Source of the DNA: a virus
Lineage: Duplodnaviria > Heunggongvirae > Uroviricota > Caudoviricetes
Direction: 5' to 3' (one strand)
Length of the DNA: 19,599 nt
IMG/VR virus record: IMGVR_UViG_2617270964_000006
Span: 1-19,599 of that record
The notes under the pieces were generated by a model. The model had not been told where the DNA came from, did not search any database, and was given only the letters and a program-made list of their open reading frames with translations. The position numbers and the translations under genes were made by a program. Positions 3,114-15,450 of this stretch are shown here, in pieces (the stretch's first letter is position 1; each line of letters begins with the position of its first letter).

Positions 3114-3607
3114 CAGCACAGCTCCGCAAACATTCGCGGTCGTCCCAGAATGTCAGAGATGGCCCAGCTCACATCGCGCCACAAATCCGATGTCTGTATA
3201 TCCAGTGCGTCCGCCCGGCGGTCGCCCTTGTCCGTTGTGTCCGCATCGCGGTAACGCTCCAGAATCAGGGCGCGTGTGGCGGTATAAACAGCATTGCGCC
3301 AGTGCCAGAGATTGACGCTTTCTCCGTTAATTACAGGGGCCGGAACATCGGCCAGCGTCTGATAGCCAGCCGCCTGTTGTTCCTGCTGCCATGCTTCCAG
3401 CTCGCGGGTAACGTGTGCTATGGCCCCGGTGGCGGTATGCAGCAGGCGGGAGGTGGTCACGCGGCCCGGCAGTCGTACCGCCAGACGCAGCTCGCGCAGC
3501 ACAATATCCGGCCAGAATGCACCCGCTGAAATACGGGTATCGCCATCATCGGTGTCGGTGATGTCGTCCTCTGCGGGGCCGGGGTTAGTTCTGGCAACCA
3601 TACTCAT
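3113..3607 (-). CDS. L: P2 gpL-like head completion/stabilisation protein
   Basis: About 164 aa in the conserved position between M and X; first ATG at 3607 preceded by AGGAG. Family assigned from synteny and size. Confidence 0.7.
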   Translation of the reverse strand: MSMVARTNPGPAEDDITDTDDGDTRISAGAFWPDIVLRELRLAVRLPGRVTTSRLLHTATGAIAHVTRELEAWQQEQQAAGYQTLADVPAPVINGESVNLWHWRNAVYTATRALILERYRDADTTDKGDRRADALDIQTSDLWRDVSWAISDILGRPRMFAELC

Positions 3608-10565: not shown

Positions 10566-11084
10566 TCATTCGAAACTGGCAAGAATCTGTTCTCGAACAG
10601 AAGATTTCATCGTTAACCCACGATCTAGGAAAAATTGGAAATGCATTAAGGCTTGTTGTTTGTGGATAAGTCTCCTGTGCACAGCCTCTTGAAGTAGCCC
10701 TCCGTGGCGGGCGGCTTTTACACCGCGTTCCGCACACGTTTTATAAACCGCATTATCCGCCGAAAGACATGTTGCATCATGTATTCTCGCGTTAACAACG
10801 CAGCTTATGTCCGCATACTTCAATGCTCTCCTGCGATTTTTTATCTCAGCCATTTCAATAAAATGTTCAGGTTCGTAATCATTGGTGAAATTGTATGGAA
10901 GTTGCAGGCGTGTAAGCTGTTCCTGAACATCAAGATTGTATTTAGCTTTTAGTTCCTCGCAGACATAGGGGTCAATCCACACACCACCCGGGTAAATTTG
11001 CCAGATAAGATCTAAGCATTTACCTTCGTAAAAATCAGACAGTACATTCGTATCGATAACACATCTGGGGCATTCAAACGGCAT
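10566..11084 (-). CDS. PIN-like nuclease domain protein (candidate toxin/effector)
   Basis: ATG at 11084 with AGGAGG RBS, overlapping the upstream gene's end by 11 nt. MPFECPRCVIDTNVLSDFYEG... has the PIN strand-1 motif (V-I-D-T-N-V-L) and further acidic residues (CEEL, YADIS, IHDAT). About 172 aa. Confidence 0.6.
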   Translation of the reverse strand: MPFECPRCVIDTNVLSDFYEGKCLDLIWQIYPGGVWIDPYVCEELKAKYNLDVQEQLTRLQLPYNFTNDYEPEHFIEMAEIKNRRRALKYADISCVVNARIHDATCLSADNAVYKTCAERGVKAARHGGLLQEAVHRRLIHKQQALMHFQFFLDRGLTMKSSVREQILASFE

Positions 11085-12219
11085 CCTCTCCGGCCTCCTG
11101 TTCGTCGTACCATTCATCCAGAAGATTGCTGAGAGCTTTTCTGTCTAATTCTAAAAGTTCAGATATGAAGGTTTCCGACGCGGAACCGGCTTCCCATGCT
11201 TTACGCGATAAGACGGTTAGGCGGCCTTTATAATTTAGTGCTTCCCTAATGGGATTTGGCTCGTGTCTCTTCCAACCTTTACGATTGGCGGTTGCCCATA
11301 GGTATCTAGTGTTTTGTTGATTAATTAAATTACATTTACTAAGACGATCGATGATGCAAGTGGCTGATACTCTGAAAATGCTTTTTAGTCTAAGGACGGT
11401 TTCCTCATACGCCCATCCACCACCTTGCATGACGAATTGTTTTCGCAATGCGCTTTCTGGTACCAAAAAACAAGCAGCAAAGTGATTAGCAACTTTTTCT
11501 TCCGGTGAAATTGCTTTGCCATTGGTTTTATAGCTTTTAGCAGGGCCATCATACTCATCACGGTGGAAGATAAGATGAGCATATTCATGGCAAATACTGA
11601 AGATTTGACGTTCTATTGAAATGCTATCGTGAACATTTACATAAATCGCGGTACCGTATTTGTTCGAAAACGCAGAAAATCCGAATACCATCCCTTTATC
11701 AGTTTCTTCGCGATTGAACGGGATTACTCGAATATCCGATGCTTCCAAAATGGCTACAATGTCACCAACGCAAGTAGCGTTTCCTATACCAAGACGGAAA
11801 CGTTCTTCCATAGCCTTATCTTCGACTCTTCGCAAATCTTCTGCTTTGGCGGTAAAAATAGGCATTGAGTTAGGAAGATCTTCTGGCAAATTAGCATCTG
11901 CAGCTTCCTCAATTGCATTGATATTTTTTAACTTTTCAATCAACTCATTGCGAAGTTTGGCATCCAACAAATCCGGACTATCTGCTCGCATTGCAAAACG
12001 AAACTCGCCATCATCTTGCTCATAAAAATACCCGATAGGCTTATCGAAAATCTTGCAGAGCATGATGAGTTGGGTAACGCTTGGGACGCCTAGCGCCTGC
12101 TCAAACTTACTGTAGGTTTGACGAACAACACCGATCGCATCTGCGACGGCGCTTGCACTCATTCCTGCGTCGTTTCTGGCCTGAACCAAGCGTTCTGCTA
12201 TACGCTGTTGAATGTTCAT
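11074..12219 (-). CDS. XRE-family HTH fused to ImmA/IrrE-type (M78, COG2856) zinc metallopeptidase
   Basis: 381 aa; N-terminal HTH (RIAERLVQARNDAGMSASAVADAIGVVRQTYSKFEQ); HEXXH zinc site in SICHEYAHLIFH; AGGTGA RBS; AT-rich coding sequence. Confidence 0.85.
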   Translation of the reverse strand: MNIQQRIAERLVQARNDAGMSASAVADAIGVVRQTYSKFEQALGVPSVTQLIMLCKIFDKPIGYFYEQDDGEFRFAMRADSPDLLDAKLRNELIEKLKNINAIEEAADANLPEDLPNSMPIFTAKAEDLRRVEDKAMEERFRLGIGNATCVGDIVAILEASDIRVIPFNREETDKGMVFGFSAFSNKYGTAIYVNVHDSISIERQIFSICHEYAHLIFHRDEYDGPAKSYKTNGKAISPEEKVANHFAACFLVPESALRKQFVMQGGGWAYEETVLRLKSIFRVSATCIIDRLSKCNLINQQNTRYLWATANRKGWKRHEPNPIREALNYKGRLTVLSRKAWEAGSASETFISELLELDRKALSNLLDEWYDEQEAGEDAV

Positions 12220-12340
12220 ACGTCACCTGAATTTAACAATGGTGGCTCTTATGGGTTTAGATTGGTTAATTATTACTAACATTATGAATGGAGAGTTGCA
12301 AAAATCATAGTTAAATTATGCAAATTTCATGGAGCGTGAT
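12220..12340 (-). promoter_or_regulatory. AT-rich upstream region of the HTH-peptidase operon (putative sigma70 promoter/operator)
   Basis: Read on the minus strand: TTGCAA-17 nt-TAGTAAT candidate -35/-10, plus TTGCA/TGCAA partial inverted repeats. No experimental support. Confidence 0.3.
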
Positions 12341-12447
12341 GTGGTGTGGGTTCACACTCTCTGCTGATTACATCTAGGGCGGTTTCCGCCCTGGCTCTGC
12401 TTACTCAGGAAATAGCGCCCGGATATTTCCGGCCATCTGACTGGTTA

Positions 12448-12552
12448 TCTGTGCGGTTGGTACTGGCTGTGACACGGGGCGTTCTGTCCTGGGCCGTTCT
12501 CAGTCCATGCCAGCTTGATGTTGGTGGAGCCGTCATCGATACAAATTTTCAT
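12448..12552 (-). pseudogene. 34-codon remnant resembling the N-terminus of a ParM/StbA-like actin ATPase
   Basis: MKICIDDGSTNIKLAWTENG... versus the R1 ParM start MLVFIDDGSTNIKLQW as I recall it; AAGGAAAA RBS; in-frame TAA after 34 codons, with no continuation in any frame. Confidence 0.4.
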
Positions 12553-12583
12553 GTCGCTTTTCCTTATGTTGATTAATTAATCG

Positions 12584-12693
12584 TTTACGGGATTCTGAAA
12601 TCCCGTTTTCGCCTGTTTTGCGCGCGCTTCATATATCGCGGCGCGTTTTTTGCTCATTTACGGGATTTGTGAATCCCGTTTCTGTCTGTTTTT
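12584..12693. repeat. duplicated ~37-bp hairpin elements at the 3' end of gene A
   Basis: Copy 1 12584-12619 TTTACGGGATTCTGAAATCCCGTTTTCGCCTGTTTT; copy 2 12657-12693 TTTACGGGATTTGTGAATCCCGTTTCTGTCTGTTTTT (overlaps the last A codons); between them a GC-clamped AT-core hairpin followed by TTTTTT. Confidence 0.5.
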
Positions 12694-15450
12694 GTTTCCA
12701 CTGGTCAGGACACCCCGCAGCAGGTCTGCTTTGCGGCGGGCGCGTTCAGTGGTTTCACTGATTCTCTGTGCGTGCTCTGCGTCACGGATGGCGCGCAGCA
12801 TGTCAGAAAGCACGGTAACGGGAGTTTTCATGGTGTTCTGGTCCTGCTGAATTGTGGATGCCAGGCGTGCAGCGGCTTCAGGGTCTGATGCCCCGAGCTG
12901 TTTCAGATAGCTGGAAATCGGGTTATGGCGGATTTCCGTGCTGTTTACGCCGTGATTACGGCTCAGGCGCTGCCAGAGCTGCGTGATTCGGCTGTCCGGT
13001 CGGGTATCTGGTTTGCGTACAATTTCAAATCCCTGCGGTGCAATGATGCTGCCGTCAACGTACAGACTGCCGCCTCGTAACAGGTGCTGCATCTGCTGTT
13101 CACCGATATGCAGGCCGAGAGATTCGGCAGATTCCCGCCATTCTTTAGCGAGTAATTCGTGGTTATCAGGCAAAGGCCGCTGATGTTTGCGGCTCTGTGT
13201 CCAGCTCTGCATTTCATCGCTGCTGTTTTTTGTCTGTTTGTCACGAAGCGAACGCATCAGCGCCCGGCGTTCGTGTCGTTTCAGTGAGCGCATCCATTCG
13301 TTCACTTCAACGCCGTCAGGGAGCTGCGGCCACGGTGCTGGCCGTTCTTCCGGCTGTTCTGTCCCGTTGTTGTCCGTTTCCTGTACACGGGGACAGTTAT
13401 TGCCACGAGTCCAAGGGGCGGCAGGGCCGCCCTGAAGGTCAAAACCATTTTCGCGGGAGCTATCTTCCGCTTCCGGTTTGCGTCTTACCAGCTTCCAGTT
13501 ATCCGGATGCGTGCATACGCGGGAAGACTCCCCGATGAGCGGCGACCAGATCCCGTAAATCTGTACACTCTGCTCACCGTAATCGTTCAGTTCATCTGCG
13601 AGGTCGTAGGCGGTGCGAATCAGGTAGTCTTTGCGTGGAACAAGCACGCCACCCTGTTTTTCAATGTAGGTGGCAAAACACCCGGCATCAGCGGCAGCGA
13701 GTACCGCATCCATTGCGTCATCCTTCAGCCGTTGCGGGCCTTCCGGGTTGCGTGCCATCTGGCTGGCAAGGCGGCGCAGTTCACGCCACACCTGACGGGA
13801 GGGGATACCAAAGAACTGGAACTGGCGGATTCGGTGAAGGCGCGCCCAGCCGATGGCGCGTTCCACGCTCTCGGCCATTGATTTTCCGGTTTCGTGGTCA
13901 ACGCGTGGCTTGCCCGTTTTCGGGTCGATGCCATCCACGGCGCGGCTGTCCAGGTTCTTTCCGATGTAGGTGGCGATGTAGCTGGTTGGCGTGCCTTTTG
14001 AGCCGTCGACGTACTCCGCCTTAAAACGCGGAGTTATGTCATCGCCCAGCTCGTGGCGGTCTTCCTGAATGGCAATATCGCAGACGTGGGACACGATGGT
14101 TTCAATCTCGTCCGGATGTGCAAAGACCATCATATGCCAGTGCACAGTGCCGTCATGGTGAGGCTCCACCGTGCGGATGCCATACCAGCGCAGACCGTCG
14201 CGGTTCAGTTTTTTGCGGACCGCCGCAAAAAACGTGTTAACCAGATAATCGCTGGAGTCGCGCATGGTGGCCCCGTTCCATTTGGGGTTCGGATGACCGT
14301 TCTCTGTTGTAGCGTGGTATTTTGACGGGCAGGTGACAGTCAGAAACACCGCTCTGTCGCCACGGGCTTCGGCCAGAAGTTCCAGCCCCTTCATGGTGGC
14401 CATCATTTCTGCCTTACGGTGAACCGGGTTACTTACTCCCGCGTAATACACTGTCTCGAGATCAATCGTGAACCCGTCTTCGTTTTCCAGCATGAAACTT
14501 TTCAGGAAATCGCGTGTTTTCTCGCGCTGTGCGCGAAACTCGCTTAACGCGTCCTGGCTCAGATAGGGCGATGTTTTTCTGGAAACCAGACAGGCGGCGC
14601 GGAGTTGTTCTTCTCTCCACTCGCAACGTAACAGCCACAGTTTGCGTTTCCACCATTCCGCACAGGTCAGGCGAAGGATTGCGCCCGGCAGCAGTTCTGT
14701 GTCCGGTTCGTTCCTCCGGTCTTTGTCTGTTGTCAGTGCGTCATAATGCGGAGGCATGGCGTGCAAGTGTAACGCCATGCGGGCCAGCATCTGATACGCC
14801 TTCAGCGTTACATCCATGGTCAGCTCGCCATCAGTCGCGCCAAAACCATCGCAGAGTTTTTCGAAGGTGCTGCTGAACATCGCCGCCGTCATGGTGGCCA
14901 GCGTCTGTATCTGGTGTTTGTTGAGTTGCGGCAGGGAAAGCAAATCGTCCAGGCGTTCACGTCCGGCAAGGGACCGATAACCCGGTGTCAGCCAACGGCT
15001 GTCGGTGCGGTCCAGACGTACGAATATTTTGCGCAGGGTTCCGCGTGCATAGCGTTCCGCCTGCCAGCTCTTTTTGCCTTTCCGGCGATCGGCTTCCTGT
15101 TTTTTGCGCAGGAAGGAGAGGTGGCGAATAAGCGGATCGCGCAGATAGGACGGCAGCAGGCGCAGCGAGGCCATGGCTTCATCCACCGCGCCACGTGCCT
15201 GTTTTCTGGCTTCTCTGGCCAGTGTGATGGTTTTGTCCTGTTTTTCCTGTGCGTCCAGGCTTTTATTAATCAGGTTGCCCAGCGGCGTGGCGGAGAACGC
15301 CGCATCAGCCATTTCCTGGCGGCGCTCGTTCTCTGCCCGGTAGGCATCCAGCCAGGAGGAAAGCTCGGATTCAGGAGCGGGGATTCCCGTTCCTTCACGA
15401 CCCACTGCGTGGCGCGGTTGTTGCCAGTCCCTGATGTACTCTGCCGTCAT
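12658..15450 (-). CDS. A: P2 gpA-like rolling-circle replication initiator (HUH endonuclease)
   Basis: 930 aa; HUH motif in VEPHHDGTVHWHMMVF; convergent with Q across the cargo locus, as in P2. Longer than the ~760 aa I recall for P2 A, implying an extra C-terminal region. Confidence 0.9.
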   Translation of the reverse strand: MTAEYIRDWQQPRHAVGREGTGIPAPESELSSWLDAYRAENERRQEMADAAFSATPLGNLINKSLDAQEKQDKTITLAREARKQARGAVDEAMASLRLLPSYLRDPLIRHLSFLRKKQEADRRKGKKSWQAERYARGTLRKIFVRLDRTDSRWLTPGYRSLAGRERLDDLLSLPQLNKHQIQTLATMTAAMFSSTFEKLCDGFGATDGELTMDVTLKAYQMLARMALHLHAMPPHYDALTTDKDRRNEPDTELLPGAILRLTCAEWWKRKLWLLRCEWREEQLRAACLVSRKTSPYLSQDALSEFRAQREKTRDFLKSFMLENEDGFTIDLETVYYAGVSNPVHRKAEMMATMKGLELLAEARGDRAVFLTVTCPSKYHATTENGHPNPKWNGATMRDSSDYLVNTFFAAVRKKLNRDGLRWYGIRTVEPHHDGTVHWHMMVFAHPDEIETIVSHVCDIAIQEDRHELGDDITPRFKAEYVDGSKGTPTSYIATYIGKNLDSRAVDGIDPKTGKPRVDHETGKSMAESVERAIGWARLHRIRQFQFFGIPSRQVWRELRRLASQMARNPEGPQRLKDDAMDAVLAAADAGCFATYIEKQGGVLVPRKDYLIRTAYDLADELNDYGEQSVQIYGIWSPLIGESSRVCTHPDNWKLVRRKPEAEDSSRENGFDLQGGPAAPWTRGNNCPRVQETDNNGTEQPEERPAPWPQLPDGVEVNEWMRSLKRHERRALMRSLRDKQTKNSSDEMQSWTQSRKHQRPLPDNHELLAKEWRESAESLGLHIGEQQMQHLLRGGSLYVDGSIIAPQGFEIVRKPDTRPDSRITQLWQRLSRNHGVNSTEIRHNPISSYLKQLGASDPEAAARLASTIQQDQNTMKTPVTVLSDMLRAIRDAEHAQRISETTERARRKADLLRGVLTSGNKNRQKRDSQIP

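Follow-up and report, generated by a model that had tools for sequence, protein, structure and literature searches.

A probable parC-type partition site overlapping the end of replication gene A in P88-like P2 phages, present as an orphan relic in a P2-family prophage

The duplicated palindromic repeats that straddle the stop codon of the replication gene A in a P2-family prophage probably constitute a parC-type site, i.e., a 112-bp centromere and likely operator belonging to a type II partition cassette (ParM/ParR) of P88-like P2 phages, which subsists here as an orphan relic. The DNA analysed, hereafter the window, is a stretch of 19,599 nt of a virus of the class Caudoviricetes (IMG/VR record IMGVR_UViG_2617270964_000006), where the P2-family prophage lies in reverse orientation respective to the P2 map, with the capsid and terminase genes on the left. 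The binding of ParR to this element is inferred from its position, its architecture and the analogy with known partition loci. The features considered are given below by coordinates in the window, strand and nature, the sense strand of A and of the par genes being the minus strand.

12376-12392, no strand: hairpin AGGGCGG-TTT-CCGCCCT, directly after the parR stop; right end of the par module
12401-12492, minus strand: parR 3' remnant, the last ~30 codons (...ERPVSQPVPTAQITSQMAGNIRALFPE*), in a frame that differs from the parM remnant; found by ParR and DNA alignments
12445-12552, minus strand: parM remnant of 35 aa, ATG at 12552; codons 1-20 (MKICIDDGSTNIKLAWTENG) homologous to ParM, then out of frame up to the stop
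12553-12580, minus strand: parM leader with its ribosome-binding site AAGGAAAA (12558-12565), near-invariant and resembling the R1 parM leader CATAAGGAG
12581-12619, minus strand: downstream unit D, sense strand AAAACAGGCGAAAACGGGATTTCAGAATCCCGTAAACGA; nearly identical in a Hafnia relative
12587-12606, no strand: palindrome D, ACGGGATT-N4-AATCCCGT, proposed ParR binding site; intergenic, 73 bp from palindrome U
12620-12653, minus strand: central core of 34 bp, with a GC-stemmed hairpin (ATATAT loop, ~12620-12646) and an A6 tract
12654-12692, minus strand: upstream unit U, sense strand AAAACAGACAGAAACGGGATTCACAAATCCCGTAAATGA; member of the 39-nt direct-repeat family, kept in 83 loci
12660-12679, no strand: palindrome U, two inverted AATCCCGT half-sites, proposed ParR binding site
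12658-15450, minus strand: gene A, HUH rolling-circle replication initiator of 930 aa (Phage_GPA, E 1.6e-129), apparently intact
13393-13430, minus strand: homologue of the P2 ori nick region, GCGGCCCTGCCGCCCCTTGGACTCGTGGCAATAACTGT, inside A; 30 of 38 positions identical to P2

A repeat search delimited two direct repeats of 39 nt (12581-12619 and 12654-12692), 79% identical and 73 bp apart from start to start, each holding a dyad-symmetric core of 20 nt, namely ACGGGATTCTGAAATCCCGT at 12587-12606 and ACGGGATTTGTGAATCCCGT at 12660-12679. Both copies obey the same 20-bp formula, ACGGGATT-N4-AATCCCGT, where the four AATCCCGT half-sites form two inverted pairs, one pair in each unit, and the whole element covers 112 bp (12581-12692), i.e., the two 39-nt units around a 34-bp core. 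The original prediction had described two near-identical stem-loop units about 73 bp apart at 12584-12693, one in the last codons of A and the other just downstream, with a GC-clamped hairpin of AT-rich core between them; both units were indeed found, their coordinates being right to within 1-3 nt, the positions of the stop codon and palindromes agree with the proposed layout, and the central hairpin is present at ~12620-12646 in the sequence as well as in the folds. This arrangement exceeds what chance would produce. The octamer AATCCCGT occurs 6 times in the window against 0.56 expected (~tenfold over), a count reached by none of 200 shuffles, and CGGGATT-N4-AATCCCG finds perfect matches at the two palindromes only throughout the 19.6-kb window. 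The arrangement further recurs in 83 related loci, including that of a Hafnia relative where the 73-bp spacing is identical. This spacing corresponds to 7 helical turns. On the sense strand, the periodicity of AAA tracts, taken as a sequence proxy for bending, peaks at 10.5 bp (13 of 5000 shuffles reach the peak), and the Hafnia element behaves similarly with a peak at 10.75 bp (7 of 3000 shuffles).

What lies downstream is the key to the identity of these repeats, namely a remnant of parM, which had been missed in the original prediction. When the region 12230-12760 was submitted to megablast against phage records, it matched 14 genomes of Xuanwuvirus (P88-like) phages, only from position 12493 rightward and with 94-98% identity. 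In P88, Shae_phiSM and other relatives, A is followed by parM (319 aa), then by a gene for a partition protein of 103 aa, i.e., parR, and the repeats fill the space from the A stop to the parM start. The alignment of the window with P88 runs from the 3' end of A through codon 20 of parM and breaks at 12492|12493, where, through a deletion of ~1.2 kb, codon 20 of parM is followed directly by what remains of parR, its last ~30 codons, with a microhomology of at most 1 nt. With parM and parR fused by this deletion, neither ParM nor ParR can be made; the cognate pair is adjacent to the site in the relatives and, since the window retains fragments only, the element stands here as an orphan site, a relic with no complete locus. 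A sister prophage, in E. coli 2013C-3181, exhibits the same deletion junction and the same downstream cargo, and its parM and parR fragments are annotated as pseudogenes by PGAP. The right end of the par module is marked by the hairpin at 12376-12392; in P88, a hairpin of different sequence occupies the same post-parR position and homology between the phages stops there. Beyond this hairpin begins the variable cargo, which in the window comprises a protein with HTH and M78-peptidase domains (PADLOC RmrA, E 2.8e-35) and a PIN-domain protein.

Regarding the proteins of the cassette, the ParM of P88 exhibits StbA_N and ParM domains and matches the R1 ParM in the PDB at E 9e-93 with ~50% identity. 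The phage ParR (103 aa) belongs to the Pfam family PF10784 (Plasmid_stab_B, E 1.6e-24), which is also matched by the R1-type ParR of one collected locus (L011, with a ParM score of 710 bits against 1mwk) as well as by the ParRs of IncFIA, IncL/M and IncI plasmids. When phage and plasmid ParRs are aligned, they have in common an N-terminal strand motif, R..F...P, and a C-terminal tail, N[IAV]xx[LFM]F, which in the phage proteins take the form of an invariant N-terminal strand PTRRISFYLKP and of a conserved tail NIRALFPE. The search of the PDB with the ParR sequence returned no significant match, and the ribbon-helix-helix fold was not supported by an AlphaFold2 model of the monomer (15-sequence alignment; pLDDT 57, pTM 0.37), in which the N-terminus is disordered. 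The strand of a ribbon-helix-helix protein forms only in the dimer. The N-terminal DNA-reading strand of ParR being invariant in 85 of 85 loci, the test of covariation between ParR and the palindromes gives no signal either way. As for position, 28 nt separate the end of the repeats from the parM ATG (12552), the position being the same in the loci of P88, Shae_phiSM, pC-Ec2-KPC and Hafnia with a full-length parM, and being directly upstream of parM the repeats stand exactly where the centromere/operator parC is located in type II partition loci.

The overlap with gene A appears incidental, the A frame simply running into the par module. The stop codon of A (TAA) stands at 12660-12658, unit U overlaps the last 11 codons of A and its stop, and palindrome U spans the final six codons and reaches the first base of the stop, while palindrome D lies 52-71 nt downstream of it. 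The A proteins of the window and of P2 are 31% identical, and for the C-terminal 250 aa of the former, matches are confined to Xuanwuvirus phages. In P88, the TAA is mutated to CAA and A extends ten codons into the core. In all, 97 loci were collected, of which 83 hold the region and were aligned (63 unique sequences); 80 of these show the 3' end of A, the two repeats and parM in collinear order. In the other three (L035, L064 and L074), the left edge of unit U is precisely where homology to the window begins. A terminates earlier in L064 and L035, and a separate ORF of 145-155 aa (MIKYCRQCGREL...) is found between A and parM, with its 3' end over palindrome U. This intervening ORF reads the palindrome in the frame of the window in L064 (...KRDSQIP*), and the same bases are read in another frame in L035 and L074 (...TGFTNPVNEQKTR..DI*). 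The palindrome is kept as DNA whatever protein, frame or stop overlies it, and it stays attached to parM, not to A.

The collection is close-knit, ParR identity being no lower than 93% in any of the best 80 IMG/VR loci, and the Hafnia locus (ParR 74% identical) is the only clearly divergent comparator; a contig search for distant ParR relatives added 4 loci, two of which are probable contaminants. In Hafnia, the element consists of two 42-nt units with a 73-bp spacing and GGGATT-N4-AATCCC cores, and its A-tracts are kept; the outer base pairs and much of the central core differ from the window. A comparison of P88 with Hafnia gives a gap-free identity of 76% for the element, the four-fold sites of parM standing at 61%. 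Within E. coli, the nucleotide diversity of the element (pi 0.051) compares with 0.064 at parM and 0.021 at A four-fold sites, i.e., no excess of conservation over synonymous sites at this scale.

The manner in which the palindromes vary fits dyad-symmetric protein sites on duplex DNA better than strands selected to fold, as judged from the alignments. The GGGA and TCCC positions are invariant in the 63 unique sequences, and variation is confined to the N4 spacer, the outermost pair and one inner position per palindrome. In a 45-sequence alignment, no pair of palindromes U and D had changed on both sides, the pair 26-33 of palindrome U is broken in 13 of the 45 sequences, and the covariation score (0.061) equals in essence the shuffled mean (0.060), being reached by 119 of 500 shuffles. 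Where changes are single-sided, they are wobble-compatible on opposite strands for U and for D. The central GC stem shows three double changes, each in a single sequence, which is weak evidence at best. Since compensatory covariation is missing from the palindromes, there is no sign that a folded single strand has been under selection. RNA folding assigns both strands the same stability, as the two palindromes pair with each other, and is as such uninformative; a scan of 11900-13100 against Rfam at a permissive threshold gave no match at or near a gathering score, the only hit being a spurious IRES of 16.8 bits.

Among characterised type II partition loci, the parC of plasmid R1 offers the closest frame of comparison. 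It spans 159 bp, with two sets of five 11-bp iterons on both sides of a 39-bp core carrying the promoter, is strongly curved and accommodates about one ParR dimer per iteron (PMC2241845); a sequence of this type is visible in L011, where the R1-type parC gives an AAA signal at 10-11 bp (72 of 3000 shuffles reach it). Like R1 parC, the phage element sits directly upstream of parM, in the company of a ParM about 50% identical to that of R1 and a ParR of the same Pfam family, comprises two repeat arms around a core (34 bp here, 39 bp in R1), and has an A-rich sense strand with phased A-tracts suggestive of curved DNA. The half-site AAATCCC also resembles the R1 iteron core AAACCC, as a resemblance only. 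The differences are nonetheless marked: (i) the phage element has four inverted half-sites over 112 bp instead of ten direct 11-bp iterons over 159 bp, (ii) the promoter has been mapped in the R1 core and no consensus promoter was detected here, and (iii) the phage element extends into the 3' end of the gene before it and belongs to an integrated phage, not to a plasmid, with parM and parR deleted in the window. The parC regions of the other PF10784 plasmid ParRs are made of unrelated T-rich or A/C-rich direct repeats, with no homology in sequence at the level of the site.

Two other systems enlarge the comparison. The srpC site of the SXT/R391 elements, located upstream of a ParM homologue, consists of four short repeats, direct and inverted, bound by an adaptor (PMC4489591), and from this precedent mixed direct and inverted repeats do occur among type II centromeres. 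The likeness extends to the context, srpMRC being also a type II partition locus on a normally integrated element beside the replication functions of an HUH-type relaxase. The repeat sequences are however unrelated, SrpR has no recognisable similarity to known ParRs whereas the phage ParR is a clear member of PF10784, and the function of srpC was shown experimentally whereas that of the phage site is inferred. As for the prophage CGP3 of Corynebacterium, it encodes an actin-like filament system with a DNA-binding adaptor and specific cis sites, alpS; this AlpAC system has been reported to act in the transport and replication of the viral DNA, not in the inheritance of plasmids (PMC5539076, PMC4446434). 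AlpAC/alpS could provide a model for a role of ParMRC in a phage, although its proteins are unrelated in sequence and the host and type of phage differ.

A working scheme can be proposed for the intact relatives. Dimers of ParR would bind the four AATCCCGT half-sites of the two 20-bp palindromes, which, at 7 turns from each other, would be presented on the same face of the helix; the phasing of the A-tracts, at 10.5 bp, makes a bend in the DNA probable. The ParR-DNA complex would then cap ParM filaments through the C-terminal tail NIRALFPE of ParR and would move or position the phage DNA, and it probably also controls the expression of parMR. The orphan element of the window could be active only if another P88-like prophage provided ParR and ParM in trans.

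Several other explanations deserve to be weighed against a parC-type site, beginning with the one put forward in the original prediction, where the repeats would be origin sites, with A binding or nicking the hairpins and thereby initiating rolling-circle replication. Origins associated with hairpins are frequent targets of HUH enzymes. The A protein is indeed an initiator of the Phage_GPA/HUH type, one of the palindromes is inside A, and the P2 record bears out that a P2-type origin lies within the A gene, since its annotation puts the A nick at nt 29892, within A (28034..30319), whose stop comes 427 nt later. The alignment to this mapped P2 origin, however, leads away from the repeats: the consensus of the window and P2 nick regions has a unique match in the window, at 13393-13430, an unusually well conserved block that is likely, from its sequence, to be the real origin, ~750 bp from the repeats. 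The palindromes have no resemblance to the nick-region block and no palindrome of this kind lies near 13393-13430 in the window. While the P2 ori shares phage family and gene neighbourhood with the repeats, it precedes the A stop by ~430 nt (P2) or ~750 nt (window), bears no sequence relation to the palindromes and is not duplicated. The repeats are moreover absent from P2, which has A without parMR, with no P2-type matches in the megablast results, and they accompany parMR even where another gene or frame lies upstream (L035, L064 and L074). The claim of ori-related sites for A was thus not upheld, and an origin at the hairpins is extremely improbable. The second suggestion of the original prediction, a recombination hotspot marking the cargo junction, held in part. 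The repeats are the first bases of the accessory module parC-parM-parR attached behind A, and in L035, L064 and L074 the breakpoints of homology do coincide with the left edge of unit U as a mosaic edge; in the window itself, the breakpoints (12492|12493 and 12376-12392) fall outside the repeats. The repeats also recombine with each other, as in E. coli 2013C-3181, where they are collapsed by a precise 73-bp deletion (parMR being already deleted and A frameshifted), and in the IMG/VR locus L095, where the same precise collapse leaves a single hybrid repeat with parM and parR intact. Taken with a diversity within E. coli similar to that of synonymous sites, this could make the repeats functionless scars or hotspots of module exchange, e.g., a junction duplicated when illegitimate recombination joined the par cassette to A. 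Yet dyad symmetry, 73-bp spacing and half-site cores are kept in Hafnia despite the 61% identity at parM four-fold sites, both copies are retained in 83 of 85 loci, and a perfect 8+8 palindrome present twice is not what would be expected of a scar, which renders this explanation very improbable.

The remaining explanations involve transcription. Seen from the + strand, a T-rich run follows each of the three hairpins, T6 being directly after the central one, and a terminator scanner flags 12660-12679 together with both palindromes of Hafnia on the equivalent strand; the hairpins could then be intrinsic terminators, antisense to A and parM, that insulate A from transcription coming from the cargo side. 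On this antisense strand, the pattern of a hairpin and T-run is present, yet no + strand gene ends there in the intact phages, where 1.3 kb antisense of parR-parM would have to be transcribed before reaching it and a separate hairpin already follows the parR stop. The T-runs are besides the complement of the sense A-tracts, whose 10.5-bp phasing belongs with centromere bending, and the stem changes do not compensate each other consistently on either strand, so that insulating terminators are quite unlikely. On the sense strand, the hairpins are followed by A-rich sequence without a U-tail and do not qualify as a terminator for A or parM. With parM beginning 105 nt after A on the same strand and no sense-strand terminator in between, co-transcription of parM with A is plausible, and the element could be purely regulatory at the A-parM junction, either as an operator of ParR or of another repressor or as an RNA structure controlling processing or parM translation, devoid of any centromere role. 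The autoregulation of R1 ParR at parC (PMC2241845) speaks for it, as do the highly structured sense RNA that is predicted (z = -7) and the pairing potential of the central stem, which is kept in Hafnia through G-U pairs. Operator and centromere coincide, though, in known ParMRC loci, and a regulatory function is in this respect a subset of the parC-type site more than a rival to it; as for RNA, the covariation reported above is that of shuffled alignments (0.061 vs 0.060, 119/500), and the low folding energy is the trivial outcome of two palindromes similar enough to pair with each other. A solely regulatory element is accordingly unlikely. By analogy with R1 parC, the central core is where a par promoter would be expected; at the threshold of the scanner, no sigma-70 consensus promoter was detected in the core of either the window or Hafnia, and weak promoter-like candidates were picked out only by eye, namely TGAGCA-15-TATATG in the window and TGAACA-16-TATAAG in Hafnia, a transcript shared by A and parM being just as possible as a promoter in the core.

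If the parC-type site is accepted, the purpose of a ParMRC system in such a phage comes into question, whether for an episomal phase, the positioning of replicating DNA or the assistance of an HUH initiator. Partition genes have been noted in P88 by Pfeifer et al., who suggested that episomal and integrated states may both exist (PMC7969092), and the R1 ParM and ParR are known to stimulate the HUH relaxase TraI (PMC4949242). Our literature search found no paper describing the cis site of the P88-type cassette. It is conceivable, as a tentative extrapolation from these analogies, that the ParMRC behind A is a working part of the biology of P88-like phages instead of a leftover from plasmid maintenance, with a compact palindromic parC used by ParR and ParM. 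If so, ParR and ParM could (i) act in the positioning or separation of phage circles that replicate or have been excised, a role proposed for AlpAC and srpMRC, (ii) stimulate the neighbouring HUH initiator A, as in R1 with TraI, or (iii) help these normally integrated phages to exist as episomes, a state suggested for P88; orphan copies, in turn, could act as ParR sinks interfering with co-resident P88-like prophages. A candidate centromere as compact as 112 bp with four clear half-sites would permit a direct test of an R1-like ParMRC in an integrating phage, and the main interest of the element lies in this entry point to the role of an R1-like partition machine in integrated P2-like phages. 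For annotation purposes, the hairpins should not be labelled as an origin, the likely origin being at 13393-13430, and this prophage carries only a decayed par relic.

The A-parC-parM junction is far from rare, as it occurs in 1307 of 5426 complete E. coli genomes (about a quarter), at 1985 places that are almost all chromosomal, with up to five per genome. A mobile repeat such as a MITE was considered and rejected, the best-scoring places listed among these 1985 matches being all annotated between a replication endonuclease and ParM. Of note, one plasmid match (L004, from Shigella) is disrupted by an IS and uninformative. Among the matches listed, ParR relatives of the P88 type come from Escherichia, Salmonella, Citrobacter, Cronobacter and Hafnia only. 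In the E. coli survey, the deletion seen in the window was met in only one other genome. With its single hybrid repeat beside intact parM and parR, L095 hints that two copies of the repeat may not be required.

In the window, the partition genes parM and parR have undergone an internal deletion of ~1.2 kb, so that codon 20 of parM is now followed, in a different reading frame, by the final ~30 codons of parR. An identical deletion junction is present in the prophage of E. coli 2013C-3181 (L098), where both the parM fragment and the parR fragment are annotated as pseudogenes by PGAP. On the far side of this relic lies a hairpin, which has its counterpart at the matching position of phage P88, where a hairpin of different sequence is found. 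Between-phage similarity stops at this hairpin, which is probably a terminator as well as the right boundary of the par module. The features concerned, together with those of two related loci discussed below, are as follows.

Features of the window and of two related loci
Window 10566-12219, minus strand: cargo downstream of the par relic, two overlapping genes
Window 12376-12392: hairpin AGGGCGG-TTT-CCGCCCT, immediately 3' of the parR stop
Window 12401-12552: parM-parR fusion, junction at 12492|12493
Window 12661-13380: C-terminal part of A, ~240 residues (residues about 690-930)
L098 (E. coli 2013C-3181) 3173-3198: hybrid single repeat in a decaying prophage, with parMR deleted and A frameshifted
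L095 (IMG/VR locus) about 1480-1536: hybrid single repeat, with parM and parR intact

Of the two cargo proteins, the first (381 aa) carries HTH_3 and Peptidase_M78 domains and matches the PADLOC models for RmrA (E 2.8e-35), while the second (183 aa), encoded by the overlapping gene that comes after, is a PIN-domain protein. The same pair occurs in E. coli 2013C-3181 and has the appearance of a toxin-antitoxin or defence pair occupying the P2 variable region. As for parC, the proposed centromere/operator, its two 39-nt repeats have recombined into one hybrid copy, once in L098 and once in L095, by a precise deletion of 73 bp.

Within the gene for the replication initiator A, the block 13393-13430 (minus strand) is identical at 30/38 nt to the annotated nick region of the P2 ori, despite the A proteins of the window phage and P2 being only 31% identical; judging from this sequence match, the block is likely the real origin of the window phage. 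The C-terminal part of A gave no Pfam match and is confined, within the phage collection, to 14 Xuanwuvirus records, all of which possess parM; a functional link between this putative domain and ParMR is possible. At its very end, the A stop codon TAA, situated within the palindrome, is replaced by CAA in P88 (L001 4137-4170) and a few relatives (several IMG/VR loci), where A runs ten codons further into the central core between the repeats; the C-terminal residues of A are evidently unconstrained. In two other loci (L064 394-831 and L035 993-1460), A is shorter and followed, ahead of parM, by an additional ORF of 145-155 aa, which begins MIKYCRQCGRELHYKEKFYF, has a Cys-rich N-terminus, overlaps the upstream palindrome by its 3' end and returned no Pfam match.

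The A-parC-parM-parR region is also contained in NZ_CP148288.1 (E. coli, 34,461 bp), deposited as a non-mobilizable plasmid. Its size, 34.5 kb, equals that of a P88-like genome, and the record represents either a circular phage molecule, whether episomal or arising by induction, or an artefact of assembly; as such, it is relevant to the phage-plasmid question. An E. coli-type parR (92% identity) is also found in two Firmicute assemblies, namely a contig of Vagococcus sp. WN89Y (L014) and a 229-bp contig of Fredinandcohnia humi (L016), where it most likely reflects contamination.
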